64,000 nt of DNA from an uncultured Gammaproteobacteria bacterium (GTDB taxonomy: Bacteria; Pseudomonadota; Gammaproteobacteria; CAISUE01): positions 75 through 64,074 of the forward strand of contig CAYYFQ010000006.1 in assembly GCA_964471475.1 (NCBI GenBank), written 5' to 3'. The notes under the pieces were generated by a model. The model was given only the letters and a program-made list of their open reading frames with translations, was not told where the DNA came from and did no database searches. Made by a program: the position numbers and the translations under genes. Of the stretch, positions 38,511-57,451 are shown in pieces (position 1 is the first letter of the stretch; each line of letters opens with the position of its first letter).

Positions 38511-38576
38511 GTTCATTTTTATGGTACGAAAGTATACAATGAGCATTAATTCATAAATGCTTACGTAGCCTCAACG

Positions 38577-39194: not shown

Positions 39195-39196
39195 AA

Positions 39197-39973
39197 ATGA
39201 CGCATCTTTCATCTCATATTACGGCTCAACCATCTCATTATGATAAAGAAGCCAAACATTACGATACCTTTAATGAAAAAAGTTCAGAATCGACGAATCG
39301 TTTTATTGAAAGTATGTTGCAAAAATATCAGGTGAAGTCCGTGCTTGATTTAACCTGCGGAACAGGTTCGCAAGTTTTTTGGTTATCCAAGCGGGGCTAT
39401 GATGTCGTCGGCGTGGATATTAACGCCAAAATGCTTTCTCAAGCTAAACGCAAAGCCAAAAAAGAAAAGCGTTCGATTCCATTTTTGCAAGGCGATATGC
39501 GAACTGTGAAAGCGGGTGAATTCGATGCGGCCATTACGATTTTTAATGCCATTGGCCATCTCACCAAAAAAGACTTTGAAAAAGCGATTCGCAATATTCA
39601 TCGTAATTTGAAAAAAGGCGGCATATATATTTTTGATATTTTTAATTTGAATTACTTATTGGCCGGCGATAATATCACGAAGCTAACCATTGATTGGCAA
39701 AAACAAGAAGGTGATACCACCGTTCGTGAAATTCAATTTAGCACAATTACGCAAGATGGCGTCCTCGCTTCCTATACAACCTCTTGCGCGCAACAAAAAA
39801 ATAAAAAGTTAAAAGTTACTGAAAGCGCTCAAACGTTGCAGGTATACTCAGCTAAGCAATTAAAAGCGATGTTAGAAAAATGTGGCTTTAGGGTTTTGCG
39901 TCAATGTGGGATTGATGGTACGCGATTGAATGATAAGCAAACGGAGCGTATAGTGACTATCGCAAGAAAATAA
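39197..39973 (+). CDS. Class I SAM-dependent methyltransferase
   Basis: VLDLTCGTGSQ glycine-rich motif I. The 3' end is duplicated as a remnant at 50098-50220. Confidence 0.75.
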   Translation: MTHLSSHITAQPSHYDKEAKHYDTFNEKSSESTNRFIESMLQKYQVKSVLDLTCGTGSQVFWLSKRGYDVVGVDINAKMLSQAKRKAKKEKRSIPFLQGDMRTVKAGEFDAAITIFNAIGHLTKKDFEKAIRNIHRNLKKGGIYIFDIFNLNYLLAGDNITKLTIDWQKQEGDTTVREIQFSTITQDGVLASYTTSCAQQKNKKLKVTESAQTLQVYSAKQLKAMLEKCGFRVLRQCGIDGTRLNDKQTERIVTIARK

Positions 39974-39989
39974 TTCAAAGGATATCCGT

Positions 39990-40604
39990 ATGTTTTATTC
40001 TGCTAGTGAACTACCGCGAGGACTTTTTAAATCGTGCATTGTGCCAAGGCCTATTGCTTGGGTGAGTAGTGTCAGTAAAAAAGGCATTTTAAATTTAGCG
40101 CCGTTTAGTTATTTTAATGCTGTATCGGATGAGCCTCCCATGATCATGTTTTCGACAACAGGTGCGCATACGGAAGGTGATGCCAAAGATTCCTTAAAAA
40201 ATATTGAAGAAACCGGTGAGTTTGTGGTGAATATTGTGAGTTATAACATGCGAGAAGCGATGAATTTATCGTCGGCAGATTTGCCGCGTGATCACAATGA
40301 GTTTGAGCTTTCGGGTGTCACACCAGAATCTTCTGCGCTTATTAAAGTCCCTCGTGTCAAAGAATCGCTGATTCATCTCGAGTGTGCTTATTATTCTTCC
40401 GTACAACTCCCGACTCCTTCGCGGGAGGTTATTAACCGAATGGTGATTGGGAAGGTGTTAGGAATCCATGTTAATCCAAGCGTCATAACAGAAGGACGCA
40501 TTGATATGACTAAGCTTCAACCGATTGCGCGTTTGGGATATAACGATTATGTGAAAGTTGAAAAAGATATTTTTGAAATAATTCGGCCTAAAGCTGTAAG
40601 TTGA
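39990..40604 (+). CDS. Flavin reductase-like FMN-binding domain protein, copy 1
   Basis: The PIAWVSS..NLAPFSYFN flavin-reductase-like fold signature. ~90% nt identity to the copy at 53095-53703. Confidence 0.8.
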   Translation: MFYSASELPRGLFKSCIVPRPIAWVSSVSKKGILNLAPFSYFNAVSDEPPMIMFSTTGAHTEGDAKDSLKNIEETGEFVVNIVSYNMREAMNLSSADLPRDHNEFELSGVTPESSALIKVPRVKESLIHLECAYYSSVQLPTPSREVINRMVIGKVLGIHVNPSVITEGRIDMTKLQPIARLGYNDYVKVEKDIFEIIRPKAVS

Positions 40605-40652
40605 TTATTCCTTAATCAGCAATATCGTCTTTAAATTTGGAAAATAAATGAT

Positions 40653-41696
40653 ATGGTAGACAAAATAAAGTTAGGAAAAGATGGCCCCTGGGTTTCTAAA
40701 ATAGGCTTTGGTTGTATGGGATTATCTGGGCATTATGAAGAGGCGCGCGATGAAGAATCTATGGCAACGCTGCAAGAAGCCTATCAATTAGGAGTCAATT
40801 TTTTTGATACTGCTGATGTTTATGGAAATGGTCATAACGAACGTTTGCTGGGCCAAGCATTGCGAGAAGTGCTGAATAATCATCGAGAAGAGCTTGTTAT
40901 CGCAACAAAATGCGGATTTGCTGCACGAGCTGATGGCACTGCATATATGGATTTTTCTTTTGAATATATTAAACAAGCCTGTGAACGTTCATTAGAACGC
41001 TTGAGAGTTAATTATATCGATGTTTATTATTTACATAGGCAGCCTCCGGAAAAAGATTTTGAAAATAGTATACGTGCCCTTGTTGATTTATTAAAAGAAG
41101 AAAAAATCCATCACGTGGGTTTGTCTGAATTTGATGTGCCCAGTATCGAAAGAGCAAATGATTTACTTACTGAAGCGGGTTACCCTCATGCATTAGTGGC
41201 AGTGCAATCAGAGCTTAGTTTATTATCTCCTGATGTATTACACAATGAAGTGATGGATATCTGTAATAAAAATAATATTAGTTTTGTAGCATTTAGCCCT
41301 TTGTCACGCGCACTATTAGCTGCTCCTGAAAAAATTCATAGAGACGTGCAATTTGCACCAGGAGATTTTCGACGCGTATTACCGCGCTTTCAGGAACAGA
41401 ATTTTGAATACAATTTATGTATGCGAGATCAATTATTGTCGTTAGCAAAAGAACAAGACTGCTCACTACCACAACTTGCGCTGGCATGGGTTATTGCACA
41501 AGGCTCTTGTGTTGTTCCAATTCCTGGCACGCGAACTATCAAGCATTTGAGAGAAAATCTAGGCGCTTTGAATATTCGATTATCTACAGCTGACATAGAA
41601 ACTATGAATAGAGTAGTGGTAGAAGGTGCAAGTGGTGAGCGATACACTGAAGCTATGTTTCAAGAGCAAGGGATCACGCGTGTCCCTGTTGCATAA
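40653..41696 (+). CDS. Aldo/keto reductase family oxidoreductase
   Basis: AKR blocks FFDTADVYGNGHNE, IATKCG, VYYLHR and C-terminal IPGTRTIKHLREN. Confidence 0.85.
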   Translation: MVDKIKLGKDGPWVSKIGFGCMGLSGHYEEARDEESMATLQEAYQLGVNFFDTADVYGNGHNERLLGQALREVLNNHREELVIATKCGFAARADGTAYMDFSFEYIKQACERSLERLRVNYIDVYYLHRQPPEKDFENSIRALVDLLKEEKIHHVGLSEFDVPSIERANDLLTEAGYPHALVAVQSELSLLSPDVLHNEVMDICNKNNISFVAFSPLSRALLAAPEKIHRDVQFAPGDFRRVLPRFQEQNFEYNLCMRDQLLSLAKEQDCSLPQLALAWVIAQGSCVVPIPGTRTIKHLRENLGALNIRLSTADIETMNRVVVEGASGERYTEAMFQEQGITRVPVA

Positions 41697-41707
41697 ATAT
41701 GATTTGG

Positions 41708-41775
41708 CGTAGCCCTTAGTGATAACGCGTAAATCCTAAGTGATTTCCCGACGGATCTTCGCACTCAACAGCGAT
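41708..41775 (-). pseudogene. Remnant of the 3' end of a VOC/glyoxalase-family gene
   Basis: Translates to NLGIAVECEDPSGNHLGFTRYH*, paralogous to the C-terminus of the intact gene at 56031-56381 (INLGIAVECEDPAGNRLGFTSYQ*). Confidence 0.5.
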
Positions 41776-41794
41776 GCCAAGATTTTATTGGCCA

Positions 41795-42109
41795 TTACAT
41801 GATACTTTTTAAAATACTGAGCATGTGATTTTTAATTAACGAATGATGCCTTTCTTTTTCCACTAAATGCAGTTGTGCAGAAGGAATATGCTGAGCATAA
41901 ATTTTGGCATGTTCCATAGGCACTTGAGTATCGGTTACTGGGAGTCCCGCATCCATGGCATCTAATGCTCGATCAAATTTCATAAAAATAGGTTCAGCGC
42001 TTTCACTGTAAACGAACTGCCAGGTATCTTTATCATTACCCCTTAAAGTCACTATTTTTTCTGTTGGCATCTTATCTCTCTTTATATTTTTATCATTTAT
42101 CAATGTCAT
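41795..42109 (-). pseudogene. C-terminal fragment of an alpha/beta hydrolase (paralogous to the C-terminus of the gene at 54599-55882)
   Basis: QVPMEHAKIYAQHIPSAQLHLVEKERHHSL parallels EVPFEDALRLRNSCTAAGTQLASFNHYPQLGH of the intact hydrolase, with the same hydrolase-then-glyoxalase order. Confidence 0.35.
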
Positions 42110-42210
42110 TCAGTTCTGCCTCAATTTCTTCTCGCGTTTGTAGAAGATCCCGATGGATATAAAGTTGAGCTCCTGGAAGAAAAATAAAATTCCATCACAA
42201 TTCGAATTTT

Positions 42211-42696
42211 CTACAGTTTCACTTCCCTTTTCATCGCAATATGTGGAATGCCGTCTTCTTCATAAACTTCGCCATAGGCTTGAAAACCCAAACCTTCGTA
42301 AAATTTTTTTAAATAAAATTGGGCAGAACCCTGTAGAGAAACTCCTGGAAAATGCATATTGCAATATTGCAACAATTCTTGTATCAGTTTTTTTCCATAT
42401 CCATGAGCACGTGCAGATTGGGCGGTCACTACTCTGCCAAAAACAAGGTCAGATTGCGTTTCAGTGGGGGGAAATAAACGTGCGTATGCGACCAGAGAAC
42501 CATTTTCCAAGCCAAGTAGATGAAGCGCAAAAGGATCTTGCCCATCTGGATCAAGATAAGGACATTTTTGTTCTACAACAAAGACATCCGCTCGCAGGGA
42601 TAAAATGGCATACAGTTGCGAAACGCTTAAGGCTGAAAATGAGTAAAAACTGAAATGAATGCCATTGTCTTGCTTCAACATGTAAAAATCCGCCAT
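42211..42696 (-). CDS. GNAT family N-acetyltransferase, ElaA-like
   Basis: 161 aa. Motif A FGRVVTAQSARAHGYGKKL. Overall ElaA-like length and pattern. Confidence 0.7.
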   Translation of the reverse strand: MADFYMLKQDNGIHFSFYSFSALSVSQLYAILSLRADVFVVEQKCPYLDPDGQDPFALHLLGLENGSLVAYARLFPPTETQSDLVFGRVVTAQSARAHGYGKKLIQELLQYCNMHFPGVSLQGSAQFYLKKFYEGLGFQAYGEVYEEDGIPHIAMKREVKL

Positions 42697-43064
42697 TAAA
42701 TAATTATCAATTGCATTGGTTATTCTAACTCAAAATATTAATCTTTAGACAAACTCTATTATCACGCTTCGTAGAAATAATGTCGCATGAAAATAGCAGA
42801 TTCTATCTGATCGCTATTACTCCCCTTCTTTCAAAATTCATTTCTGGAACACCACCTATGGCACCTGTCACTGATTTGTGCGTTGCCCGCGGTTATCAAA
42901 AACGCCCTAGCATTGCCGATTATTTACCTTGGAAAGACTATTCCGAACAACACCGATGCTTTTTATTGGAAGATGGCATGAGCTTAGCCATGGCGTTTTC
43001 TATTAAACTCATTGCCTGCGAAGCGCGGCCCAAAGAAATGTGTTAAATCATGCACACGAGAGGG

Positions 43065-44189
43065 TTATGTTTTTGGAAGACTAGTTGTAAAAATTCCCTC
43101 GGAACTGTCTTCAAAAACGGCTATAAAAGCTATGGTGCGATTTGATAAAGCATTTTCTCCTAGGCGAACGTAACGAATCTTCTTCCCATCAAGCCAATCG
43201 GATTCGGCAATAATTTTTTGAATCTTTCCTTTTTCCCATAAATAAATGCCACTCTTTCTTTTAGCGTCAGTCCCTCTAAATACGGTAAGCATATGATCAT
43301 AAGTTGGGTTAAATAAACCTGTAAAATAATTTTGTGTATGGGGAATGTGTGTTTTGTTATCTGCCAGAGTTTCTACATGATGATTTTGTGCGGTATAAAT
43401 ACCAAAAATATTTTTACCAAAACCCCGAAAAACAACGGTATCACCTTGTAATGAAGGCCCACCAAAGCTGATAAAAAATGTTTTGGTTTTAGGGATATAA
43501 GTATTATGATCAACGAGCATAGTTAATTGTCCATGAAAGTTAGCATAAATGCCATCTTGCCCTTTGTTGTTTTTTCCATTAAATGCCACGACGCTATCAC
43601 TAAGATCAGGATTCCATAGCCGCATAAAAGTTTCTTGTAACTGTGGAAGATGTGTGCTGGCATCAAACAATTTTTTTAATTGTTCTTGATCATATAAATA
43701 GATGTCATTTTGATTGGCTTGAAATAAGATCTGGCCCTTATTAATAAGAGGGTGTGATAAGTTTTTAAATGAGGCTGATTGTTGCACGATGGTATGCAGT
43801 TCTTTTTTATCATAACGATAAATTCCTGCTTGATGTTTTTTATCGATTGCTAAGAAAGCAATTTGATTTTGATCTAATGCAGGTGAACTCAATGTAATAT
43901 ATTGATATGTGTTTTGACTTGTGATGGTATTGCCAAAACTAATGAAAGTTTGGTGGCTCTGAGGGGCAAGAGTGTTTGTATCAACAATGCACTGTAAATT
44001 GCCCCATAAATTGGTATAAATCCCTAATATACCTTGATCATTTACAGCCGTAAAAATCACTTTGTCATAGGCAATATTAGGCGCGGTAAACTGGTGCAAA
44101 TGATTTTTACTATCGACCACTTTAATAAAATTCAATGCATGGATTGACAGAGTAAAGAATAAACTCAACAAAAAAATAATTAAACGCAT
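43065..44189 (-). CDS. Secreted repeat protein (beta-propeller-like; 5-6 repeats of a GIY..G.L..IVD..T.IP motif)
   Basis: Signal peptide MRLIIFLLSLFFTLSIHA. Internal repeats: GIYTNLWGNLQCIVDTNT, GIYRYDKKELHTIV, GIYANFHGQLTMLVDHNTYIP, GIYTAQNHHVETLADNKTHIP, GIYLWEKGKIQKII. Confidence 0.5.
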   Translation of the reverse strand: MRLIIFLLSLFFTLSIHALNFIKVVDSKNHLHQFTAPNIAYDKVIFTAVNDQGILGIYTNLWGNLQCIVDTNTLAPQSHQTFISFGNTITSQNTYQYITLSSPALDQNQIAFLAIDKKHQAGIYRYDKKELHTIVQQSASFKNLSHPLINKGQILFQANQNDIYLYDQEQLKKLFDASTHLPQLQETFMRLWNPDLSDSVVAFNGKNNKGQDGIYANFHGQLTMLVDHNTYIPKTKTFFISFGGPSLQGDTVVFRGFGKNIFGIYTAQNHHVETLADNKTHIPHTQNYFTGLFNPTYDHMLTVFRGTDAKRKSGIYLWEKGKIQKIIAESDWLDGKKIRYVRLGENALSNRTIAFIAVFEDSSEGIFTTSLPKT

Positions 44190-44431
44190 CTTTTTTGATC
44201 CTCACAGATCGCCATATTGAATATGTTACGCTATTAAGCTTCTCTCTCGCAAGCAACGCTTCGCGTTGTCCAAATGGGCAATCCTACCCATTTGTTGCTA
44301 ATGCTTACCCGAATGATGATGAGTTACCAGTTCCTGGGATACGACAGCGTTTAATGCATATGAAAAAGATCATTATGAATTACCAGCCGATATGAGATAA
44401 TACGATAATCTTTTTTTTTTGGAATCCCGTT

Positions 44432-44629
44432 ATGCGTATTCTCCATACAATGTTAAGAGTGCGAAACCTCGAACGAAGCCTTCGATTTTATACCGAAGTA
44501 TTAGGAATGAAATTGCTACGCCAAAAAGACTACCCTGACGAAAAATTTACACTGGCTTTCGTCGGTTTTGGACCTGAAAGCGAACAAGCCGTGATTGAAC
44601 TCACCTACAATTGGGGAGTTGATTTTTAG
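44432..44629 (+). pseudogene. gloA: Lactoylglutathione lyase (glyoxalase I) N-terminal fragment
   Basis: [64 protein letters not shown] is near-identical in pattern to residues 1-65 of GloA. It then ends abruptly. Confidence 0.75.
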
Positions 44630-44633
44630 TGAC

Positions 44634-44942
44634 GCGATGGGTGTCGCACGCGCTATTTTAAAAAATGCACCTATCTCAGTTTTAGATGAGGCGACTTCAG
44701 CCCTTGATTCTGTGACTGAAAAGTTGATTCAGCAAAGTTTACAAAAACTAATGATGGGGCGCACGATGATTGTTATTGCGCATCGACTCTCTACGTTAGC
44801 CAATATGGATGAAATTTTGGTTTTTGATCAGGGTAAAATTGTTGAGTCAGGAACACAAACCGCTTTGTTGAATAACGAAAAACATTTTGCGCGCTTATGG
44901 AAAATGCAAGCAGATGGCTTTTTGCCAGAAGAAGTGCTATAG
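44634..44942 (+). pseudogene. C-terminal fragment of an ABC exporter ATP-binding domain (MsbA-like), joined to the gloA fragment
   Basis: ILKNAPISVLDEATSALDSVTE (Walker B / D-loop), IAHRLSTL (H-loop) and the C-terminal helix. There are no N-terminal TMD, Walker A or signature motif. Confidence 0.65.
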
Positions 44943-45010
44943 GGTTATTTTGTTTTTCAATTTAATTCTATAGATTAATTAAGCGAATGGTTTAATAAAA
45001 GCTAAAGGTT

Positions 45011-47385: not shown

Positions 47386-48486
47386 TTAGGATGGTTTTTG
47401 TATTTTTTGTAAAAGGGTATTTGTAAAAACTTGCCCAGGCATGAGTAAAGCAAAATTGTTTCCTCCCCACCCATTAATTTGTGCAGTAAGAATTATTTTT
47501 CTACCAGGAATCCACATAAAGAGACTGCTATATCCATCGACAACACCGGTATACCACCATGTTAAACCATAGCCGGGGATTTCTAATGAAAATATACCTA
47601 ATCCATAACGGGAACCGGCGGGTCTAGGGGGAGTGCGTGGAACAGGAACCGTTGTCATCAGTTGATTAATGGACGCTTGCGATAATATTTTTCCAGGTGT
47701 AAATAAAGCTTGGGTCCAAATGACAAGATCAGTAGTGTTCATGAGCATACTCCCTGCCGGGCCATAATAAGATGGATTTACATCGTTCATATCTTGGTTG
47801 TTAAAGTAAGGGTGTGCTTTTTGATTTTGTACTTTGGTCGAATAGTTGCTGGCTGAATAATAACTGTGATTGAGATGCAGTGGTTTGAAAAAACGTTGAT
47901 TAAATTCTTCCGCAAGGGTGTGATGCGTTACTTTTTCAATTAAGATTCCTAATAAATAATAATTGGTATTGGAATAAGACCAGGCTTTTCCCGGGGTAAA
48001 CTCATCTTTTTCTTCATAAGCCATATCTACAAAAAAAGTAGGAGAATGATAAGCCGTGGGTTGAGATTGTATGAGTTTTTTAAAGCGTATGGTTTGTGTG
48101 AAATTAGGAATGCCGCTCGTCATATTTAACAGTTGACGGACTGTTACGGATCCCCATCGAGGATATTCAGGAAAATATTAATTCATCGAGTCATCAAGGG
48201 CGAGTTGATGTGACCGCTGTAATTGCAAAATAGTGGCGGTAATAAATGTTTTGGTAATACTACCTACGCCAAAGATATTAGCTGCGGTGATTTTTGTGTT
48301 TCCTTCTTGAGTGGTTGTTCCACTGAAAAAATATTGAGTAGATTGATGTGGTTTTTGAACAGCTACTGCAACGGCAGGGATTTTATTCTCCGAACGCCAT
48401 GTGTCAATAAAACTTTGAATACTATCTGTTGAATCGCGATTTAGATTCAAATTCTGCAGCACCGAATAATTCCAGCAACACAACAT
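47386..48486 (-). pseudogene. Serine hydrolase / beta-lactamase-family (class C-like) gene disrupted by an in-frame stop or frameshift near 48123-48178 and lacking a proper start
   Basis: The upstream piece has the GVGSITKTF SxxK motif. The downstream piece begins MTSGIPNF (class C LLxHTSG-like) and carries a later WYTG-like block. The two ORFs are co-linear but separated by stop codons. Confidence 0.55.
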
Positions 48487-48833: not shown

Positions 48834-49190
48834 TTAAGCCGTATAAGACAACGGTGCAGGAGCGCTTGTATTACCAAGATTTAGATCTCTGTTCGGCTGT
48901 GGAGCGCTCAATGAAAAACCTCTCAATGCGGATAATCTTTGCGTCATTCTCTCCGCTTTATCAAGCTTGCCCAGTAAACGATAGCTTACCTCGGCTTGAT
49001 GCAAATAAACTTGCGCTTCTCCATGTTGTCCAACTTTTAATAGCGCTTTGCCTAATTGCCAAGCAGAATCTGCCAATCGAAAGAAAGCCGCTACACGCCC
49101 CAAAAATAAATCAGGGAGATTTTCAGGGTGAAAATTTCCAGCGACAACGCGTGCCCAATGAGACGCCAAAAAATTAGCGGTGACCGCCAT
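48834..49190 (-). pseudogene. Truncated paralog of the N-terminal module of the PDF-GNAT fusion protein
   Basis: MAVTANFLASHWARVVAGNFHPENLPDLFLGRVAAFFRLAD is ~80% identical to residues 1-41 of the 34888-36879 protein. It then diverges and terminates after 118 aa with no downstream domains. Confidence 0.5.
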
Positions 49191-50097
49191 AATAGTTATT
49201 CCCCAGATGAAAAAAGAGTATTGCTGATTTTAACATATTTGTTCCGATTACTTGATTGGGAGTTATAACTTTTTGAATACACGGGCTCATAGCTTTAGCG
49301 TTATAATGATGATCGCAAAAACTAGCGCGCACTAAAAATTTTTGTTCAGTGCAGAGACATGTTATTCTGTCTATAAAAAAACTAAGAAAAATATCATTTA
49401 AGAAAAAGATGCCTAAAAATGTCATTATCAAAATTTAGGCTAGCTAATAAAATATATAATAATTGGAATAAATACTCATGGTTACTCTTTATTATTTACT
49501 TGATAAAACGACTAACAAATGGTATCAATTAGTCCAAATGGAAAATAGATCCTGCTTTTTGGTCGATTACTTTGACCTCAGTAAGGTTTATTGGGCTATA
49601 CCTACAGCTCAATTAGATGCTACCCTTCTACAGAAGAAAATATACGTCCTTCTGCGTCTGAAAGAAAATTAAAACAAGGCCAACTGTTTAAAAGAAACGT
49701 AGAAGATCAGAAAACCACTTGCTATCTCGCTCGGAATCGTACACTGCGTTCGCTTTTACATCAGTTTGCTTTAAAAATGGTTGATGGAAATCCCGATGCA
49801 CGCCCTAATATCAATCAAGTGCTTGAAGAGCTAGCAGAAATGCATATGGGTTATATTAAAAATAAAAACGTACCAAAAATATTAGTTGAAGAGGATGGGG
49901 TTGTTTCTCGCCTCCGTCGCTAGGGCTCCAGTCAGAATGCAATTAAAGTAAGAGATACTCAAAAAAAGAAAATGAAGAAAATTAACAAGAAATATTAGCT
50001 GAGTACTTAAAATGATAAATACTTTTTCCGAAAGACGAAAAATTATTAGTCCTGTATTAATGAAATGCCAGATACAATACGGAGTTTAAACCCTGTT

Positions 50098-50220
50098 AGA
50101 GAAATGTGAATTTAAAGTGCTACGTCAATGTGGGATTAATGGTGCTCGATTGAATGATAAACAAATAGAGCGTATAGTGACGGTGACAAAAAAAATATCG
50201 TCGGGAAGAAAATTTCGCTA
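50098..50220 (+). pseudogene. Remnant of the 3' end of a second copy of the class I methyltransferase gene
   Basis: Translates to EKCEFKVLRQCGINGARLNDKQIERIVTVTKK..., versus EKCGFRVLRQCGIDGTRLNDKQTERIVTIARK at the end of the 39197-39973 gene. It ends in the recurrent motif AAAATTTCGCTAA. Confidence 0.5.
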
Positions 50221-50346
50221 ATGCTTCATGGAAATTGTCTTTCTATTTCAAACCACGTATGATTTTGATATTAGGTTATTGAGGAAGGTGCTCTAGTACT
50301 TCTTTTCAATATCGCCCCGCAATAGTTCAGCATAAGGAGATGTACT

Positions 50347-51906
50347 ATGAAAGTTACTATTCGACAATCTTTATTAAAACTCACCGCCGTATTTATTTTT
50401 TTAGGGTTATCTCAATTGAGTGTGGCATTGCCTCAAGTTCAAGCCGTTAATGGCGTTGGTTTTGTTTTGAAGAACGATGGGCGAACTATTATTTTTCATG
50501 GGGTGAATGAAATGAATAAATCCCCGCCTTCTTATGAGCCTTCAAAGATTGGATTTAATCAAACGCAGGCTCAGTTTATACAACAACATGGTTTTAATTT
50601 GGTAAGGCTAGGCGTTTTTTGGGCAGCGATACAACCTACAGCAGCAAAGACAGGCCAAGCCCCTGCGTATGATGATAACTATTTAAACAATATTAAACAA
50701 ACGATAATCACATTAGCTAATCAAGGCATTTATACTTTTATTGACTTCCATCAGGATGCTTATAGTAATCAGCTTGATAGCACAGGCCGCACAGTCGGTT
50801 TGGGCGAGCCTACATGGACAAACACGGCGCCAAGCGGATATAAAAATGTGGGTTTTCCGTATAATCTTTGGGGCGGAGCCTATTTCCTCGATAGAGCTAA
50901 TCCGATTTCTACAAATCTTGATCAAAACTATACCGGTTTTTGGTCAAGCAGTACGTTGTTAAGTAATTATACGGCCATGGTTCAGCACACTGTCCAAGTA
51001 TTAAAAGGGACGCCAGGTCTGATAGGTTATGAAATCATGAATGAGCCCTTTCCAGGGATGAATTGGCGTAACTGTGCGAGTGCGTTTGATAGTCTTGGAA
51101 TTCCCACTGCTTTCGCGAATGGTTGTGCTGTTTTTGAGCAATCGGGGCAACCCTTGGCAACACTGTATCAACAAGTCATTCCTGTGATTAATCGAACAGA
51201 TCCGGATGCATTAGTTCTTTTTGAGCCAGTGGTTTTTGTGGATTATGGTTCACCCATTAAACTGCCAACTTTTACAGGAAGTAATTTGGTGCTTAGTTAC
51301 CATAATTACGACACCAATGACACAACAGCTCCCTTTAGTAGTGCCGCTACTTATGCCGCCGCTGCCGGTGGATTGCCGCAAATAATGTCTGAATTTGGTG
51401 GGGTGAATGGGCCGATTACCGTGAGTGATATTGCTGAACAAGCAGATACGACGGCACAGTCTTGGACCTATTGGGCATACTCTAACAATCCTATTTACAA
51501 ATTTGTGCCAGGAGCGCCAGACCCTACCAAGCAGGGAATTGTTATGAATATGAATGAGCCCCTTGATACACCAGGAAATGTCAATACAGATCGTTTGAAT
51601 ATCTTAACGCGACCTTATCCACAAATCATTTCAGGTCATAGTTTTACATTTGCGTATGATCGCCTTACGCATGCATTTACGATGAGCTACACGACTGGAA
51701 TGAATGATCTGCAAAGAAGCACGCAGATTTTTCTGCCTCAAGCCATTTATGGGACAAACTATAAGGTGGAATATATTCAAGGTCGCACGTTGGTTGTTCC
51801 ATTGCCCGCGGGCCCTCAAATATTGCTATTGAAAAATATTCAGCCCGGCCAGGTGAGTATTAAGGTCACGCCGAATACTCAAGCGATTCATAAAAAGCAT
51901 AAATGA
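50347..51906 (+). CDS. Secreted glycoside hydrolase family 5 protein (endoglycoceramidase/cellulase-like)
   Basis: Signal peptide (LSVALPQVQA). GH5 blocks GFNLVRLGVFW and catalytic EIMNEPF. 519 aa. Confidence 0.7.
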   Translation: MKVTIRQSLLKLTAVFIFLGLSQLSVALPQVQAVNGVGFVLKNDGRTIIFHGVNEMNKSPPSYEPSKIGFNQTQAQFIQQHGFNLVRLGVFWAAIQPTAAKTGQAPAYDDNYLNNIKQTIITLANQGIYTFIDFHQDAYSNQLDSTGRTVGLGEPTWTNTAPSGYKNVGFPYNLWGGAYFLDRANPISTNLDQNYTGFWSSSTLLSNYTAMVQHTVQVLKGTPGLIGYEIMNEPFPGMNWRNCASAFDSLGIPTAFANGCAVFEQSGQPLATLYQQVIPVINRTDPDALVLFEPVVFVDYGSPIKLPTFTGSNLVLSYHNYDTNDTTAPFSSAATYAAAAGGLPQIMSEFGGVNGPITVSDIAEQADTTAQSWTYWAYSNNPIYKFVPGAPDPTKQGIVMNMNEPLDTPGNVNTDRLNILTRPYPQIISGHSFTFAYDRLTHAFTMSYTTGMNDLQRSTQIFLPQAIYGTNYKVEYIQGRTLVVPLPAGPQILLLKNIQPGQVSIKVTPNTQAIHKKHK

Positions 51907-51911
51907 ATCTA

Positions 51912-52241
51912 CTATCTAGCGTGAATCGTGATGGCTGATTCCTTGGAGGAGACGGGATTTCCGTCTTTCGTTAGTTCACTAGCGGCATCGTGGGAAATAG
52001 TGCCATTGTTATCTGTGGTACTTGCCATGCTTGTATAGGTGCCTCCATTGTTGCCAGTGGCCTCTACTTGACGAGAGAGAGAAACTGAGTCTGGAGACTC
52101 TTTGTTGGCAGAGACAGTGATGGTTGCTGAGCCCTCCGAGGTGTTTTTTGTCTTCTGCACTGTGAATTCGTCGGCAAAGGCAGCGTGGAAGGTAATCAAT
52201 AATAGCGCTAAAACAGATGAGAGTGAAATAATTTTTCGCAT
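51912..52241 (-). CDS. Small Ser/Thr-rich secreted protein (109 aa)
   Basis: Signal peptide MRKIISLSSVLALLLITFHAAFA. Low-complexity T/S/N-rich body. Confidence 0.4.
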   Translation of the reverse strand: MRKIISLSSVLALLLITFHAAFADEFTVQKTKNTSEGSATITVSANKESPDSVSLSRQVEATGNNGGTYTSMASTTDNNGTISHDAASELTKDGNPVSSKESAITIHAR

Positions 52242-52400
52242 GATATTTTCCTGTATCCACTATTGTGTTGGAAAGCAAGCCTATAGTTCGAACAGACTTT
52301 TTGTATTGTAGCACTTATCTCAAGATTTAAAGATTTATGACTTCTTACTCTTTTAACTGACATGGTTTTGAATATAGTTAACAAACAATGGTTTTTATAA

Positions 52401-53069
52401 ATGAAAAACATATTATGTTATGGAGATTCTAATAGCTGGGGATTAATTCCGGGGAAATTTAATGAAACCTATAAGCTTCAGACAAGATTACCACCTGCAT
52501 TAAGATGGCCGCGTATTTTACAAAAGCTTCTTGGCAGTGATTATTATGTCATTGAAGAAAATCTTAATGGGCGAAATACTTCTTTTGACGAGAAACCTAA
52601 GACACGTCCTTCACGTAATGGTTTAGCTACGCTTCCGGGTATTTTAGAAATGCATTATCCACTCGATCTTGTGATTTTTATGCTAGGAACCAATGATACA
52701 CGCATTGATTTTAACTTTAATGCTTCGGTAGAAGATATTGTACAAGGCATGCAATCCTTGGTTCACTATGTGAAAGAAAGTCATTTAGGTAAAAATTTTC
52801 AAGCGCCAAAAGTGCTTCTTATAGCCCCCGCACCACTGATTCCAGAAGCAGCTGGTTATTCTGGTAATTGCTTTGATGCAAGCTCTATTCAAAAGTCAAA
52901 AGAAATCCCGGCTGCGTATCAGCAATTAGCGGAAAAAGAGCAGTGTGCATTTATTGATGCGGGCACTTTAGTTGAGGTTGACCCCGCGGATGGTGTACAT
53001 ATTAAAGGAGAAAGTTTATCGGCATTAGCAAAAGCGGTGACCGACAAAATTTTAACGATGAAATGGTGA
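52401..53069 (+). CDS. SGNH/GDSL family hydrolase
   Basis: Block I CYGDSNSWG, block III GTND and a C-terminal DGVH catalytic dyad. Confidence 0.8.
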   Translation: MKNILCYGDSNSWGLIPGKFNETYKLQTRLPPALRWPRILQKLLGSDYYVIEENLNGRNTSFDEKPKTRPSRNGLATLPGILEMHYPLDLVIFMLGTNDTRIDFNFNASVEDIVQGMQSLVHYVKESHLGKNFQAPKVLLIAPAPLIPEAAGYSGNCFDASSIQKSKEIPAAYQQLAEKEQCAFIDAGTLVEVDPADGVHIKGESLSALAKAVTDKILTMKW

Positions 53070-53094
53070 TCTTAAATTTTTTAAAGGATAGTTT

Positions 53095-53703
53095 ATGTTT
53101 TATTCTGCTTTAGAACTGCCGCGAGGCCTTTTTAAATCGTGCATTGTGCCTAGACCCATTGCTTGGGTGAGTAGCATTAGTAAAGAAGGCGTTTTAAATT
53201 TAGCACCGTTTAGTTATTTTAATGCGGTATCGGATGAGCCTCCCATGATCATGTTTTCGACGACAGGTGCGCATAGCGAAGGTGATGCCAAAGATTCCTT
53301 AAAAAATATTGAAGAAACGGGTGAGTTTGTGGTGAATATCGTGAGCTATCATATGCGAGAAGCAATGAACGTGTCGTCTGCGGATTTACCCCGCGATCAA
53401 AATGAGTTTGAATTTTCAGGCGTTACGCCAGAATCTTCGGCGCTTATCAAAGTCCCTCGTGTTAAAGAATCTCTGCTGCATCTCGAGTGTAGTTATTATT
53501 CATCCGTACAACTTCCTACCCATTCAAAAGATATTATTAACCGAATGGTGATTGGAAAAGTGTTAGGCATTCATGTTGATCCAAGCGTCATGACAGAAGG
53601 ACGTATTGATATAGCTAAGCTTCAACCGATTGCGCGTTTAGGATATAACGATTATGTGAAAGTTGAAAAAGATGTTTTTGAGATGATTCGGCCTAACGTT
53701 TAG
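53095..53703 (+). CDS. Flavin reductase-like FMN-binding domain protein, copy 2
   Basis: ~90% nt identity over the full length with 39990-40604. Confidence 0.8.
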   Translation: MFYSALELPRGLFKSCIVPRPIAWVSSISKEGVLNLAPFSYFNAVSDEPPMIMFSTTGAHSEGDAKDSLKNIEETGEFVVNIVSYHMREAMNVSSADLPRDQNEFEFSGVTPESSALIKVPRVKESLLHLECSYYSSVQLPTHSKDIINRMVIGKVLGIHVDPSVMTEGRIDIAKLQPIARLGYNDYVKVEKDVFEMIRPNV

Positions 53704-54454
53704 ATTGTGTGCTTAAATCTTCGAAGTGTGTTATCACTTGATTAAAAAAGGCATCCGTTTTTTTATCTGCTTCCAAAGAGGCTTCTTTGCAAAATTGTTG
53801 ATCTGCTAACTTTTCCATTGTTGAACAACGAAAGCCATGAGTTGCAGGGTAGGTATGGATTTCCACAAAGGGATTTCTGGCCGCTATAGATTGAATAGCA
53901 TCAAGAGGAAGTAAATCATCTTTTTCCGCACAATGAAGAATAATGGGGCAACGAGGTTGCTCCTCACTCAACAAATGAATATGCGTTCCATAATAGGCAG
54001 ATATGGCCGCTATCCCATTTAATCGGGCCGCCGCAAGCCATCCTAAAGTTCCACCAAAACTTAATCCCAGAATCATTACAGGAAAATGGTATCTATTTTG
54101 TAAATAGTTTTTTGTGGCATCTATGTCTAACAGTGGTAAATAGAGTTCACTATCCCCATTAGTTTTTTCTAAGAGCTTCTCTTTTGTGGCAAGTGCTTTT
54201 CCATAGTCTTTGTCGCTATAGGAAAAGACAATATTCTCTCCAAGCCGGTCATAAAGCGATGGTGCAAGCGTATGATAACCTTGCGCTGCCCAATATTCAC
54301 AAAGAGAACGAATAAAAGGTGTTAATCCAAAAATTTCATGGAGAATAATGAGGGACGCTTTTGCTGTTTTTTCATGTGCTTCGCAAAAATAAGTTTGAAA
54401 AGTGTGATTATCTTGAGAGGTTAGTTTGATTGTTGTTGACATAAAAAATCTCAT
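53693..54454 (-). CDS. Dienelactone hydrolase family protein
   Basis: LIILHEIFGL, nucleophile elbow GLSFGG, and a C-terminal His region typical of DLH-fold hydrolases. Confidence 0.65.
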   Translation of the reverse strand: MRFFMSTTIKLTSQDNHTFQTYFCEAHEKTAKASLIILHEIFGLTPFIRSLCEYWAAQGYHTLAPSLYDRLGENIVFSYSDKDYGKALATKEKLLEKTNGDSELYLPLLDIDATKNYLQNRYHFPVMILGLSFGGTLGWLAAARLNGIAAISAYYGTHIHLLSEEQPRCPIILHCAEKDDLLPLDAIQSIAARNPFVEIHTYPATHGFRCSTMEKLADQQFCKEASLEADKKTDAFFNQVITHFEDLSTQSKR

Positions 54455-54464
54455 TTATAGATTG

Positions 54465-54530
54465 TAACCTTCAAACGATTTCCCGATGAATCTTCGCATT
54501 CCACAGCCATACTTAAGATTGATAACAAAA
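54465..54530 (-). pseudogene. Degenerate remnant of a VOC/glyoxalase gene 3' end (third copy)
   Basis: The reverse complement aligns with the 3' end of 56031-56381 (atcaatctt..tggctgtggaatgcgaagat.tcatcgggaaatcg) with a 1-nt deletion. Confidence 0.35.
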
Positions 54531-54598
54531 GATAATGGAAGAAGTTTAATACTAAACTATACTCTTGGTCTAGATGAGGCTAGCAACCCCGATAATTT

Positions 54599-55882
54599 TT
54601 ATGCGGCCTGATCTAGTTGGGAATTTCCTCCAGATTTCGAAAGTAATAAATTAGAACTTTTGAGAGTTTTAGTCACGCTATTGATGATATCATGAGTAAC
54701 AGTAAGCTCCATGGGTCCCATAGTATAATGCCATTTTTTGTAACCAGTATACGGCGAAAAGAAATGGCCTAATTGTGGATAGTGATTAAAAGAAGCAAGC
54801 TGCGTACCCGCTGCTGTACAACTATTACGTAACCTTAAAGCATCTTCAAAGGGTACTTCTGGGTCAAGTTCACCTTGAAAAACATAGGTTAACTTACAAA
54901 ATTTAACTTGTCGTGCTAGATAATCGGATTCAGAAAAATATTCTTTAAACCAAATCCTTGGAGGATAATGGGGTGGAGGATTCCATGGCTTGTTTTTATC
55001 TCCAACATCAGCTTGAAATTTCAACCATACTTGCTCATTGATGTAGGTGTATTCTGCTTTAATAATTTTTCCTGGCTGGTGTAATTGAGTGTACTTTTGA
55101 TAAAACTGATTCCAATCTCGATTTTCCACTAAAAATCGTTTACCTGCTTTTTTAGCAAACGACTGATATTGAAATGCAGTCAATGTGTCATCTTGTGCAG
55201 TATTTAATAAATTAAATAACCTTAATCGTTGATAAATCATTTGCATTGACATAATCTCTTTTAAGGAATGATTAAAAACACTTAATAAAAATAGTGCTTT
55301 TACTTGCGGACGTTGCTCGATGATTTTTAGAGCTAAAATGGTTCCCTCACTATGGCCTAATAAAGCAATTTGTGTAGAGTTAATTTGAGGAAGTTTACTC
55401 GCAAAATCAAATGCAGCGATTGCATCAGCGGCAAGGTTTTTTGCACCCGCTGTTTCGTAATCAGGAGTAGTCTTACTTTCTTTAAAGTTATTATCGGTAA
55501 CTACTATGCCTCGTTTATCATACATAAAAACTGCAATGCCCTGTTGTACTAATCCCCGCTCAATATTTTTAAAAAATAAAGTAGTTTTTCCATCCATAGT
55601 TAACGATCCAGGAATATTCTCGTAGCGATCAACATTACCACTACCAGTCAACATGATGACTAAAGGAAAAGGTCTATTTTTACCAACGGGAATGGCTAAA
55701 TGACCGTGTAAAATTAAACCATCATGAGTTTTAAATTGTTCATTAAGATAAGTGATTGTTCGTGTCGAAGAGGGTACGGGGTAAGCACTTGCTGTATTTA
55801 TAGCGCTACAAAATAATATTAATAAGACAATCTTTCTTTTAAAGAAAATGGTTGACACTTTTGCTCTTGTGAATTGGGCCAT
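54599..55882 (-). CDS. Secreted alpha/beta hydrolase
   Basis: Signal peptide from the M at 55882 (MAQFTRAKVSTIFFKRKIVLLILFCSAINTASA). Nucleophile elbow GHSEG. The ORF-track extension to 56002 would overlap the upstream gene. Confidence 0.65.
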   Translation of the reverse strand: MAQFTRAKVSTIFFKRKIVLLILFCSAINTASAYPVPSSTRTITYLNEQFKTHDGLILHGHLAIPVGKNRPFPLVIMLTGSGNVDRYENIPGSLTMDGKTTLFFKNIERGLVQQGIAVFMYDKRGIVVTDNNFKESKTTPDYETAGAKNLAADAIAAFDFASKLPQINSTQIALLGHSEGTILALKIIEQRPQVKALFLLSVFNHSLKEIMSMQMIYQRLRLFNLLNTAQDDTLTAFQYQSFAKKAGKRFLVENRDWNQFYQKYTQLHQPGKIIKAEYTYINEQVWLKFQADVGDKNKPWNPPPHYPPRIWFKEYFSESDYLARQVKFCKLTYVFQGELDPEVPFEDALRLRNSCTAAGTQLASFNHYPQLGHFFSPYTGYKKWHYTMGPMELTVTHDIINSVTKTLKSSNLLLSKSGGNSQLDQAA

Positions 55883-56030
55883 TATCCAAAATAATCGGGA
55901 ATTCCTTTGTCGGATAGGTTTTGCATAACTGCTTTTTAATTGTAATATTTTATCGCATGCTTTATGTGTATCTAGCATTGGATTATTTGTCATAAGTCTC
56001 ATCGATTAAAAAATTTTGCTAATGCTTTTT

Positions 56031-56381
56031 TTATTGATAGCTCGTAAATCCCAAGCGGTTTCCCGCAGGGTCTTCGCATTCGACAGCTATGCCAAGATTA
56101 ATAGCAAAAGGTGGTGAGAGAAATTTAACACCTTTGGCGCTTAATTCTTCATACATTTTTTGTACGTCATCAATAACAAACCAGATAGTTGGCTTAGCCT
56201 GAGGAAATTTTTTCTGATCTTTAAGAATTAACGCGGGCTCTTCATTACCAATCTTTAACCCAGTAATTCCTCGTTCAGAAAAATCAAATTTTGTTTTTAA
56301 TCCTAAAATATTTTCATAAAAAGCTTTAGATGCTTTCAAATCATGGGCTGGTAAAAAGAAGTTATCAATGGATTTAATCAT
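56031..56381 (-). CDS. VOC (glyoxalase/bleomycin resistance/dioxygenase) family protein
   Basis: MIKSIDNFFLPAHDLKASKAFYENILGLK beta-alpha-beta-beta-beta module. GGAG RBS before the ATG at 56381. The recurrent 16-mer lies 6 nt past the stop. Confidence 0.7.
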   Translation of the reverse strand: MIKSIDNFFLPAHDLKASKAFYENILGLKTKFDFSERGITGLKIGNEEPALILKDQKKFPQAKPTIWFVIDDVQKMYEELSAKGVKFLSPPFAINLGIAVECEDPAGNRLGFTSYQ

Positions 56382-56398
56382 AAAATTTCTCCAAGTTT

Positions 56399-57451
56399 TC
56401 AAGAAAAAACCAGCGCATGAAATTGCGCTAATGAACACGAATAATCACCGCAAAAAGAAATATTCACGGGTTGATCGTTGTAAGAAACTCTCACTTCGTA
56501 TTGAGCATTTTTTTCAAACAAAGCAAAGTTAAGATCAGATGCATAAGGCGGAAACTCTTTTAACGGCGCTCCCAGCGTTGTCATGACCGCTCGAATAGAA
56601 GCATCATGCCCTGAGAATAAAACATATTTTAATGGGGATTTTTTAGCAACAACGTCTTCCATGTTATTTACAATGAATTTGAGAAATCGATGCCCAACAG
56701 GAGAGGAGACGCCAGGTTGATTAAATCGATGAACATAGTACTCATCATCTAAAGCCATCATGTCAGCGAAATCCTGTTGTGTTATACCTTTGGGAAAAGG
56801 AAGATGATGCAGATGGCGTATATATAAATCATCCGAAAGCGCATCTAATTGCAGTACATTGTGGATAGGAAACCCGCTAAGAACGCTCCACCTTTCTATT
56901 TTTGTTTTTAATAATTGACTTTTTTCATGCCACCACAGATAAGATGCTATAAAATTTTTGGCTAAAAAATAGACATTTTTACTAGGCTTAACAATGAGCA
57001 AGTCATCATCTTCAATAGGAATGGCATTGATAGGAATGGGTTGATAAGCCATGGGTAACGCAGGTGTTTGATCTTGTTGGAGGAATGGACCAGTTCCTAA
57101 AGGATATAAACCCAACAAAAATGATTCTGCGCTCATCAAACTACGATTCGTCTGCGTCGAACGAACATATATGGTTTTAGCGTCATAATTCTCATCTAAG
57201 AGATGATAGCCATACACATATTTTTGGCGTAACTTTTTCCCCAACAAAAATTCTTGCTGCATGCCTTCTGGCGTAAGTTCGCCAGGTGCTTCTTTCCAAG
57301 CAACAGGATCACAGGGTAAAGTGGTGAGTGGCGCACGATCGCCATGACGAATCAAATCCACCGCAAAAAGCATTTTTTCTTCAGCGAAGGATGGTAATGT
57401 TGATAGAATCAGTATTAAAAATAAACCAGACAAAAATAATTTTTTAAACAT
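56399..57451 (-). CDS. Secreted histidine acid phosphatase
   Basis: Signal peptide MFKKLFLSGLFLILILSTLPSFA. RHGDRAP catalytic motif (LIRHGDRAP). C-terminal HD region (SGHDASI). Confidence 0.8.
   Translation of the reverse strand: MFKKLFLSGLFLILILSTLPSFAEEKMLFAVDLIRHGDRAPLTTLPCDPVAWKEAPGELTPEGMQQEFLLGKKLRQKYVYGYHLLDENYDAKTIYVRSTQTNRSLMSAESFLLGLYPLGTGPFLQQDQTPALPMAYQPIPINAIPIEDDDLLIVKPSKNVYFLAKNFIASYLWWHEKSQLLKTKIERWSVLSGFPIHNVLQLDALSDDLYIRHLHHLPFPKGITQQDFADMMALDDEYYVHRFNQPGVSSPVGHRFLKFIVNNMEDVVAKKSPLKYVLFSGHDASIRAVMTTLGAPLKEFPPYASDLNFALFEKNAQYEVRVSYNDQPVNISFCGDYSCSLAQFHALVFS

Follow-up and report, generated by a model that had tools for sequence, protein, structure and literature searches.

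Two segments of related gene content, termed here copy X and copy Y, lie in the same orientation within the window (the whole 64,000-nucleotide stretch of contig CAYYFQ010000006.1, from an uncultured gammaproteobacterium, that was analysed), and each harbors an intact flavin reductase (FR) gene on the forward strand: FR_X (39990-40604; 204 aa) and FR_Y (53095-53703; 202 aa). Both products are predicted from their sequences to belong, along their full length, to Pfam family PF01613 (E 2.8e-25 and 1.8e-26, respectively; 89.7 and 93.5 bits, the Pfam gathering score being 27), for which the nearest solved structure (PDB 3bpk, matched by both copies at E 8e-37) is named ‘nitrilotriacetate monooxygenase component B’. 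In contrast to that component, neither copy has an adjacent partner monooxygenase; the closest relatives are flanked by TauD-like, MFS and ATP-grasp genes instead of such a partner, with the nearest (75% and 66%) found in TauD-FR-MFS-ATP-grasp clusters. The ‘NtaB/DIM6/RutF-type’ label that may be attached to these proteins derives from the JGI source names of homologues.

The two FR genes are 87.5% identical in nucleotide sequence and 89.5% identical in amino acid sequence; an earlier note on this DNA had correctly recognised a close and intact pair, at a somewhat higher nucleotide identity of about 90%. Each is the other's closest relative, with no more than 75% identity to any other of 5.8 billion clustered proteins, and they are equally near to an outgroup protein (P0003; 74.6% and 73.5% for FR_X and FR_Y). 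Their divergence (dS 0.45, dN 0.056, omega 0.12) indicates that both copies are under purifying selection; no conversion tract is visible within the gene, and GC and GC3 are identical between the copies (0.41 and 0.35). The shared stretch, as found by self-BLASTN of the whole window, covers 624 bp (39968-40591 in X, 53074-53696 in Y; E=0), and takes in the 21-bp spacer that separates FR_X from the methyltransferase (MT) gene upstream.

That MT gene is intact in X (39197-39973, forward strand; 258 aa; class I SAM methyltransferase, Pfam Methyltransf_25 E 1.8e-23), and Y shares no more of it than the final 101 bp (39870-39970), found there at 50094-50194 on the forward strand (81.2% identity, E~1e-20) as a relic of the last 33 codons, with the stop codon lost, inside a short ORF (50090-50218). 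The MT 3' remnant that had been proposed for Y is thus present and, among the 120 best MT homologues, the X gene is its nearest relative (73.5%, versus at most 65.7% for the other 119). In X the junction is continuous from 39870 to 40591, while in Y 2,879 bp interrupt the same sequence at the MT stop codon; alignment of the junctions demonstrates that both the MT end and the MT-FR spacer are homologous between the copies. No MT adjoining an FR was found among the few FR and MT relatives examined, the nearest MT relatives lacking an FR, and the junction is for that reason taken as a derived feature common to both copies.

The intervening Y-specific block (50195-53073, as delimited by the junction alignments) encodes a GH5 glycosidase (50347-51906, forward), a small secreted protein (51912-52241, reverse) and an SGNH hydrolase (52401-53069, forward; Pfam GDSL/SGNH). 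Its GC content is 0.41-0.45, versus 0.35 in the left flank, and no significant terminal inverted or direct repeats were found at 50195 or 53073. It is plausible that this block was inserted into Y; alternatively, it may have been deleted from X.

Downstream of the FR genes, both copies contain sequences of the VOC (glyoxalase) family, of which the window holds at least six pieces. The intact gene lies in Y on the reverse strand (56031-56438; Pfam Glyoxalase E 8e-13), and its real start, as read by eye, is probably the ATG at 56381. Copy X retains the last 22 codons and stop of such a gene (41716-41784, reverse), which match the 3' end of the intact one (56031-56099) with 82.6% identity over 69 bp (E~1e-12); this relic translates as NLGIAVECEDPSGNHLGFTRYH followed by a stop, has in-frame stops just upstream, and differs from the intact gene by 2/1/9 changes at the first, second and third codon positions. 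A further relic in copy Y (‘Y1’; 54451-54552, reverse; about 33 codons plus stop, ending in SMAVECEDSSGNRLKVTIYK and a stop, and accounting for the short ORF 54454-54579) matches the intact gene less closely (54453-54552 versus 56033-56131; 73% over 100 bp, E~9e-8), and shares with the X relic a core of 34 bp (85%, E 6e-5). The earlier description of three ends that are 75-80% identical therefore gives way to a graded series: 82.6% for X and the intact gene, 73% gapped or 68% ungapped for Y1 and the intact gene, and 64% for X and Y1. Judged from its sequence, the Y1 relic is related to the other two VOC ends as an older paralogue.

The left side of each copy carries an additional anchor that is new relative to the earlier note and lies beyond the region described there. 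In X, an intact Pep_deformylase-like/GNAT (‘PDF-like’) gene is encoded on the reverse strand (34888-36879; 663 aa; labelled from Pfam), and its first 41 codons (to 36879) together with upstream DNA (36753-36929) match 49064-49243 in Y, on the same strand, with 73% identity over 180 bp (E 4e-28). In Y these 41 codons open a 118-aa ORF (48834-49190), the remainder of which is unrelated. The N-terminus is conserved across the PDF-like family, and the differences between the two copies are distributed 4/3/23 by codon position over 40 codons.

Between FR and VOC, the gene content of the copies differs. X contains an aldo/keto reductase (AKR; 40653-41696, forward; Pfam Aldo_ket_red E 6e-70), situated between FR_X and the VOC relic and with no counterpart in Y by X/Y matching. 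Y contains a dienelactone hydrolase (DLH; 53693-54454, reverse; Pfam DLH E 3e-24), the ATG of which overlaps the TGA of the Y1 relic (ATGA), and a Peptidase_S9/Hydrolase_4-like alpha/beta hydrolase with a signal-like N-terminus (54599-56002, reverse). A C-terminal fragment of this last hydrolase had been thought to reside in X, but the two are not detectably related (BLASTP E=3.0): the 104-aa ORF in question (41795-42109, reverse) is a chimera, in which a TPR N-terminus (residues 14-74, 80% identical to the N-terminus of TPR protein P0242) is fused in frame to the end of an Abhydrolase_1 protein (residues 59-103, the last 45 or so, 48-61% identical to the C-termini of proteins P0245-P0249). 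A full-length member of the latter family (P0246) also fails to match the Y hydrolase (E=2.9), and the alpha/beta hydrolase was accordingly rejected as a shared gene. The gene labels themselves (methyltransferase, two Flavin_Reduct genes, Aldo_ket_red, GH5, GDSL/SGNH, DLH, Peptidase_S9-like hydrolase and Glyoxalase) are all borne out by Pfam.

When the anchors are considered together, every match between X and Y is found on the same strand and in the same order, with five such matches rising above chance (E 6e-5 to E 0), as is expected of a segmental duplication; reversed Y sequence, used as a control, gave no match above 25 bits. The copies lie about 10-13 kb apart on one contig, with unique DNA between and flanking them. 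FR is not the sole part that they share, since the MT, VOC and PDF-like matches are significant, and the proposal of two collinear copies with reciprocal gene loss is upheld in the form of co-oriented paralogous segments that have each lost different genes. The repeat is real, yet it is smaller and messier than the module first described, which included the alpha/beta hydrolase and stopped short of the PDF-like anchor: only about 1.1 kb of alignable sequence remains in total, and all anchors apart from FR are short (69-180 bp). The term ‘detoxification-type’ given to the module in the earlier note serves as a label for it. The relics nonetheless account, as had been suggested, for several puzzling short ORFs (50090-50218, 54454-54579 and 48834-49190).

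Divergence at third codon positions is 26% for FR, 30% for MT and 41% for the X and intact VOC ends (n=22), values that are statistically compatible, and rises to 57% for the PDF-like 5' end, significantly above that of FR (Fisher p=0.0003). As the anchors have diverged unevenly, they do not prove that one event produced them all. Most differences in the relics affect third positions, both in the PDF-like sequence (23/30; P=1.5e-6 versus 1/3, P=0.003 versus 1/2) and in the VOC relic (9/12; P=0.004 versus 1/3), which argues that truncation came late relative to divergence. No outgroup genome with synteny was found.

The 7-8 kb of DNA between the last anchor of X (41784) and the first of Y (49064) is unrelated and full of gene fragments, and the arrangement is therefore not a simple tandem array. 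The ‘tandem amplification’ once proposed is not borne out: there are two copies only, and the spacer DNA has no repeat to the right of Y. The genes found there were rejected as copies of spacer genes (a GNAT pair is 26% identical, E 0.007, and a beta-lactamase pair 24%). Among the spacer fragments are an N-terminal piece of TraC of the F-type conjugation system (42780-43046) and pieces of gloA, as a rule a housekeeping gene of the chromosome; Pfam searches found no replication, partition, integrase or relaxase gene in the spacer, and no integrase or transposase in 32-64 kb. The locus resembles the product of gene-cassette or mobile-element insertion in two respects, namely the precise placement of a discrete three-gene block in an intergenic junction and the recurrence of short conserved VOC 3' ends at gene boundaries. 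It differs in that integrase, transposase, terminal repeats and attC-like folds (z between -1.1 and -2.3 at the VOC ends) are all lacking, and in that the recurring sequences, read in frame, encode VOC C-termini. A mobile element or integron cassette was rejected on this basis, there being no recombinase, repeat, attC-like structure or Rfam match.

On balance we lean, with some reserve, towards an old duplication in direct orientation within the same region, the copies of which were later eroded in complementary ways. An ancestral segment containing at least MT and FR and, convergent with them, VOC would have been copied, probably together with the PDF-like gene that is transcribed divergently on its left. 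Both copies would have remained functional for a long period (FR dS about 0.45) before local deletions and insertions set in. In Y, MT would have been reduced to its last 33 codons and the PDF-like gene to its first 41, and the 2.9-kb block encoding the GH5 glycosidase, small secreted protein and SGNH hydrolase would have been gained exactly where the MT stop meets the FR ribosome-binding site (or else lost from X); in X, VOC would have been reduced to its last 22 codons, with AKR occupying the place where Y has DLH, the older VOC relic and the hydrolase. Selection maintains both FR genes. The unrelated DNA at 41.8-49.0 kb, itself rich in fragments, would have come in or been reshuffled later. 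From the homologies and their arrangement we infer a single event, its extent, the gain or loss of the 2.9-kb block and the order of the losses; in a megabase genome, it seems improbable that an independent paralogue would settle so near the other FR (within 1-2.5 kb) and with both side and strand correct. Several observations run against this history: the greater divergence of the PDF-like anchor, the complete difference in what separates FR from VOC (AKR in X and DLH in Y), the shortness of the anchors apart from FR, the lack of a syntenic outgroup among the genomes found and the apparently metagenome-type assembly from which the sequence comes.

A possible but unlikely alternative is that the second copy is a homeologous module from a related organism, delivered by a plasmid or conjugative element, integrated beside the resident one (recombination inside the shared module being one possible route) and then decayed to leave the fragment-rich spacer. 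The TraC fragment and the many truncated genes of the spacer fit such an origin, as does the location of the closest PDF-like (58%) and MT (70%) homologues on Rep3/ParA/ParB plasmids of uncultured relatives (L017, L020) and the occurrence of integrase or rve genes beside the closest FR relatives. That both copies diverged under purifying selection is what would be expected of working genes in separate genomes, and direct orientation agrees with Campbell-type integration. However, the spacer's lack of replication, partition, integrase and relaxase genes, its gloA pieces, the identical base composition of the FR copies and the absence of any DNA match among 72,556 plasmids all weigh against import, and an identity of 87% would be low for homologous integration. 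The mutual closeness of the FR copies is neutral between import and duplication within the genome. It is also conceivable, but distinctly improbable, that only a piece of about 0.7 kb was copied, consisting of FR and the final 101 bp of MT, such that the MT ‘relic’ is merely the edge of the copy, and that the VOC and PDF-like matches are older, separate paralogies that are collinear by coincidence. The abrupt edges of the MT-FR homology (39870 and 40591 in X) would be so explained, as would the higher frequency of first- and second-position changes in the MT relic than in FR (9/66 versus 19/400, p=0.01), as if it had never been selected; the clearly older PDF-like anchor and the window's wealth of VOC-family pieces point the same way. 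Three independent coincidences would nevertheless be needed, which is unlikely: the X VOC relic matches, at an identity near those of FR and MT, only the intact VOC adjacent to FR_Y, on the same side and strand, and the PDF-like relic is likewise correctly placed in side and strand, no more than 0.9 kb from the MT relic.

That the contig is a chimera of two strains or species sharing the module is scarcely credible. The source, an 84-kb NCBI contig, looks metagenome-type, the contig index contains no Y-copy proteins (and yielded no independent contig to confirm the Y junctions), and two Logan contigs (L010, L011) break inside FR, as happens at repeats in short-read assemblies. Those same contigs, from two separate run assemblies, are 100% identical to the window across HAD-MT-FR and thus contain the X junction, and a divergence of 12.5% makes collapse or mis-joining difficult; furthermore, the copies are 10-13 kb apart in one contig with unique DNA between them and on both sides, and the different relics of each copy are not expected from a chimera. 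It is, finally, very doubtful that the rearrangement was non-random, with a genome-specific 17-mer (AAATTTCGCTAATGCTT) marking block boundaries and driving the insertion and replacement of gene blocks, in the manner of an uptake signal or of a site associated with recombination. This motif occurs 8 times versus 0.09 expected, with 7/8 occurrences in the 34-60 kb accessory region; one site follows the MT relic after 16 bp, on the left edge of the GH5 block, and one follows the VOC stop after 4 bp. If it were so, what is read here as duplication and reciprocal loss would be the outward trace of a mechanism for targeted gene exchange.

That segmental duplications specific to one lineage are followed by differential (reciprocal) gene loss, with pseudogene relics left behind, is a familiar pattern in the evolution of bacterial genomes. 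The duplication favoured here resembles it in its collinear, co-oriented anchors, in the retention of two FR genes under purifying selection, in the complementary truncation of neighbouring genes and in short ORFs that prove to be gene ends. It departs from that pattern in that only about 1.1 kb is still alignable, in anchors of differing age, and in the 7-8 kb of unrelated, fragment-rich DNA that takes the place of a head-to-tail array. The phenomenon is ordinary genome history, and not a new kind of system.

The value of the locus lies mainly in annotation and genome history. ORFs 41795-42109, 48834-49190, 50090-50218 and 54454-54579 represent gene relics or fusions and do not merit annotation as genes; the stretch from 41.7 to 50.2 kb has locally undergone deletion and rearrangement in a chromosome that is otherwise ordinary. 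The locus also provides a small worked example of how the codon positions of the remaining differences can place truncations in time relative to a duplication. The two flavin reductases represent lineage-specific paralogues, both of which have been retained by selection.

Self-BLASTN of the window, together with a more sensitive search of X against Y (the two paralogous segments, at ~36753-41784 and ~49064-56438), yielded five significant matches, with order and strand identical throughout. These comprise the 5' end of a Pep_deformylase-like ('PDF-like') gene with its upstream DNA (X 36753-36929 versus Y 49064-49243; 73% over 180 bp); the 3' end of the methyltransferase gene, MT (39870-39970 versus 50094-50194; 81%, 101 bp); the MT-FR spacer and FR, the flavin reductase gene (39968-40591 versus 53074-53696; 87.5%, 624 bp); the 3' end of VOC, a glyoxalase-family gene (41716-41784 versus 56031-56099; 82.6%, 69 bp); and the core of a VOC relic (41742-41775 versus 54477-54510; 85%, 34 bp). 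Within Y itself, 54453-54552 matches 56033-56131 at 73%. The reversed Y sequence, used as a control, gave no match above 25 bits, and six-frame comparisons of X with Y revealed no further common pieces; relics of xylulokinase, HAD, AKR or DLH were sought in the opposite copy by tblastx and sensitive blastn, and none was found. Pfam confirmed the gene labels of the earlier note, and because several significant anchors (the MT, VOC and PDF-like ends) lie beyond the flavin reductase, the similarity is not confined to that one gene, the outcome which the note had set against its own proposal.

The PDF-like anchor, missed in the earlier note, consists of the first 41 codons and upstream DNA of a 663-aa Pep_deformylase-like/GNAT gene; its counterpart in Y is the start of a 118-aa ORF (48834-49190) that keeps just these 41 residues, an N-terminus conserved across a family of deformylase-like proteins ~400 aa long, and then runs into unrelated sequence. 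The 663-aa product (34888-36879, minus strand) joins an atypical peptide-deformylase-like part of ~400 aa to a GNAT domain and ends in a tail rich in proline. Among the homologues found, the two parts belong to separate proteins (PDF alone in P0251-P0258, GNAT in P0253, P0254, P0259 and P0260), and the closest homologue of the PDF-like part is found on a Rep3/ParAB plasmid.

X is unbroken from 39870, inside MT, through the MT stop codon and a 16-bp spacer to 40591, near the end of FR, whereas in Y the same sequence is in two parts, 2,879 bp apart (50195-53073), with the break falling precisely at the MT stop codon. The intervening block encodes GH5, an SGNH hydrolase and, between them, a small secreted protein. 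The stop codon of the Y MT relic is gone, and its reading frame runs eight codons further; around the block, a search for terminal repeats or a target duplication returned only chance-level matches of 12-30 nt. In both copies the homology stops a few codons short of the FR stop, 3' of which lie AKR on the plus strand in X and a convergent DLH in Y. The TGA of the first VOC relic in Y ('Y1', 54451-54552) overlaps the DLH ATG (ATGA), as is typical of a VOC-DLH gene pair that would once have been coupled. The X VOC relic is reduced to 22 codons and a stop, preceded by in-frame stops, and is 82.6% identical to the corresponding end of the intact Y gene (56031-56438); the Y1 end, at 68% to the intact gene and 64% to X, is more distant from both and so, judged by these distances, is an older paralogue. 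The three VOC ends have no common fold, attC-like or other (z between -1.1 and -2.3), and an Rfam search gave no match. Since no recombinase gene, terminal repeats, attC-like fold or Rfam match was found, the X/Y structure is not a mobile element or integron. Promoter and terminator scans gave matches at shuffle expectation. A sigma-70-like match (TTGAAT-17-TATAGT) occurs inside the MT 3' end of both copies (39926-39954 and 50150-50178, plus strand), ~36 nt upstream of the FR start in X and directed at the GH5 block in Y; it could be the reason for retention of the MT relic, but promoter-like matches overall stand at chance, and the evidence is weak.

The two flavin reductases, FR_X and FR_Y, are 89.5% identical, while the closest other match in 5.8 billion protein clusters reaches 75% and is about equally far from both (74.6% and 73.5%). 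The 33-residue Y MT relic has the X MT as its nearest relative (73.5%, versus at most 65.7% for the others among the 120 best MT homologues). FR homologues with organism names come from Legionella and unclassified Gammaproteobacteria (54-59% identity), a weak hint that the source may be a Legionellales-like bacterium. The nearest FR relatives sit in TauD-FR-small ORF-MFS-ATP-grasp clusters, and the nearest MT relatives adjoin other genes, one of them on a Rep3/ParAB plasmid; because MT adjoins FR in none of the relatives examined, the MT-FR junction is a derived feature common to X and Y, tying both to one ancestral arrangement. The comparison with related genomes proposed in the earlier note could be made for the gene neighbourhoods of the nearest homologues of FR, MT and the PDF-like gene, which have no neighbours in common with the window, but it produced no syntenic locus to show the ancestral order: a scan of genome contigs for synteny recovered only FR relatives of 41-46%, a metagenome scan with VOC gave nothing useful, and no syntenic outgroup emerged from the scans run.

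The FR pair has a dS of 0.45, a dN of 0.056 and an omega of 0.12, with 14, 5 and 52 differences at the first, second and third positions of 200 codons; recent gene conversion within FR was considered and rejected (longest identical run 41 nt, versus 37.6 expected). The corresponding differences are 4, 3 and 23 over the 40 codons of the PDF-like relic (P=1.5e-6 versus equal thirds; P=0.003 versus one half), 2, 1 and 9 between the X and intact VOC (P=0.004 versus equal thirds) and 5, 4 and 10 for the MT relic, in which changes at the first two codon positions are commoner than in FR (p=0.01). In our reading of these counts, most of the divergence would have arisen with both genes of each pair still functional, so that the truncations of VOC in X and of the PDF-like gene in Y would be late; for MT in Y an earlier inactivation is probable, or else a copy that was incomplete from the start.

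The tandem amplification put forward in the earlier note is contradicted by ~7-8 kb of unrelated DNA between the last anchor of X and the first of Y, and the genes that follow Y on its right do not repeat those of this spacer, which is a patchwork of gene fragments. An alpha/beta-hydrolase had also been counted among the genes of both copies; a hydrolase C-terminus is present beside X, but it belongs to another gene family than the Y hydrolase and lends no support to duplication. According to an exhaustive HMMER search, the 104-aa ORF in question (41795-42109) is a fusion, with residues 14-74 matching the N-terminus of P0242, a 272-aa TPR protein, at 80%, and residues 59-103 matching the final ~45 residues of Abhydrolase_1 proteins (48-61%). 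BLASTP ruled it out as a copy of the Y hydrolase, which is Peptidase_S9/Hydrolase_4-like (E 3.0), P0246, a full-length member of the ORF's hydrolase family, has no similarity to the Y protein (E 2.9), and on these comparisons the hydrolase was rejected as a common module gene.

Further along the spacer, glyoxalase I (gloA) is broken and its order permuted: the C-terminal piece (residues 109-127, LAFVEDPDGYKVELLEEK and stop; 42128-42184, plus strand; PDB 1f9z, E 6.6e-6) lies 2.2 kb upstream, on the same strand, of the N-terminal piece (residues 1-64; 44432-44629, plus strand; PDB 1f9z, E 2.5e-27), which continues into a C-terminal fragment of an ABC ATPase (44595-44942). The permuted order could have arisen by tandem duplication and two later deletions, or from circular DNA opened inside gloA. 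Between the two pieces are a GNAT gene, a DUF7453 gene and a TraC N-terminal fragment (42780-43046, plus strand; an ORF of 88 aa that matches PF11130 over residues 45-82, E 2.3e-7); TraC being a protein of F-type conjugation, the fragment may be the relic of a conjugative element. A beta-lactamase-family (PF00144) gene in two ORFs (47386-48123 and 48178-48486, minus strand), which shares just 24% identity with the family's intact gene at 58021-59400, is probably, from its split frame, a pseudogene. ORF 49585-49920, taken by eye for a kinase C-terminus, found no support in Pfam or PDB.

We favour, with somewhat better than even confidence, a duplication in direct orientation that took place long ago and covered MT, FR and VOC at the least, the PDF-like gene probably included. 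Both copies would have been retained for long and then eroded in complementary ways, with a block inserted in Y and other DNA arriving between X and Y. It is less likely that the second copy was brought from a relative on a plasmid or conjugative element: the TraC relic in the spacer speaks for such a transfer, as does the finding that MT and the PDF-like gene have their closest homologues on plasmids, but there is no backbone gene and no plasmid DNA similarity, and the GC3 of the two FR copies is identical.

Third-position divergence amounts to 26% for FR, 30% for MT, 41% for VOC (n=22) and 57% for the PDF-like anchor; the first three values would be compatible with a single event, whereas for the PDF-like anchor, with a divergence that differs from that of FR (p=0.0003), a share in that event is less certain. 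That only a 0.7-kb piece (the MT end and FR) was copied, the other anchors being coincidental older paralogies, is rated as improbable. An assembly chimera is given very little credence; the HAD-MT-FR stretch of X is reproduced at 100% identity in two Logan run assemblies, but no independent contig carrying the Y copy is on record.

The G+C of the window is 40%. Its left part holds housekeeping genes (NrdA, ClpB, PDH E2, YifB), and accessory enzymes take over from ~32 kb on, among them TipAS, APH, several methyltransferases, GNATs, VOC proteins, beta-lactamase-family proteins and an acid phosphatase. A palindromic element of ~165 bp, present at 13527-13691 and as an inverted copy at 24667-24831 (96% identity), with a partial copy at 105-187, ends in the inverted repeats TATATACCCATCGTACYTGAAGAT...ATCTTCAAGKACGATGGGTATA; it has no Rfam match and resembles an intergenic repeat of the MITE or REP-like kind. 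The xylulokinase (FGGY) gene (37002-38510, plus strand) has a G+C of 0.44-0.49, versus ~0.39 in its surroundings, which suggests a foreign origin; despite this shift, it contains two copies of the genome-specific 17-mer AAATTTCGCTAATGCTT.

This over-represented 17-mer is the most unusual thing seen, although a side observation to the duplication. It has eight sites in the window with at most two mismatches, versus 0.09 expected: 23240(-), 34821(+), 37607(+), 38408(+), 47090(-), 50210(+), 56011(+) and 59641(+). All but one fall within the 34-60 kb accessory region, in coding DNA (the two xylulokinase sites included) and at gene junctions, and those at 50210 and 56011 abut junctions of the Y copy. 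Its core, GCTAATGCTT, the most over-represented 12-mer family of the window, occurs nine times versus 0.47 expected, on the plus strand in seven cases, and stands without the full 17-mer at 20383(+) and 44297(+). The flanks of the sites have no similarity to each other, the 17-mer is absent from 19 retrieved comparison loci, and literature matches to it were unrelated primers only; it might be a candidate for an uptake-signal-like, polar or protein-binding motif.

The X/Y locus reads as an ordinary example of lineage-specific segmental duplication, in which differential loss of genes has left relics as pseudogenes. No new mechanism is revealed; the locus is useful for annotation and documents how this part of the genome has decayed.
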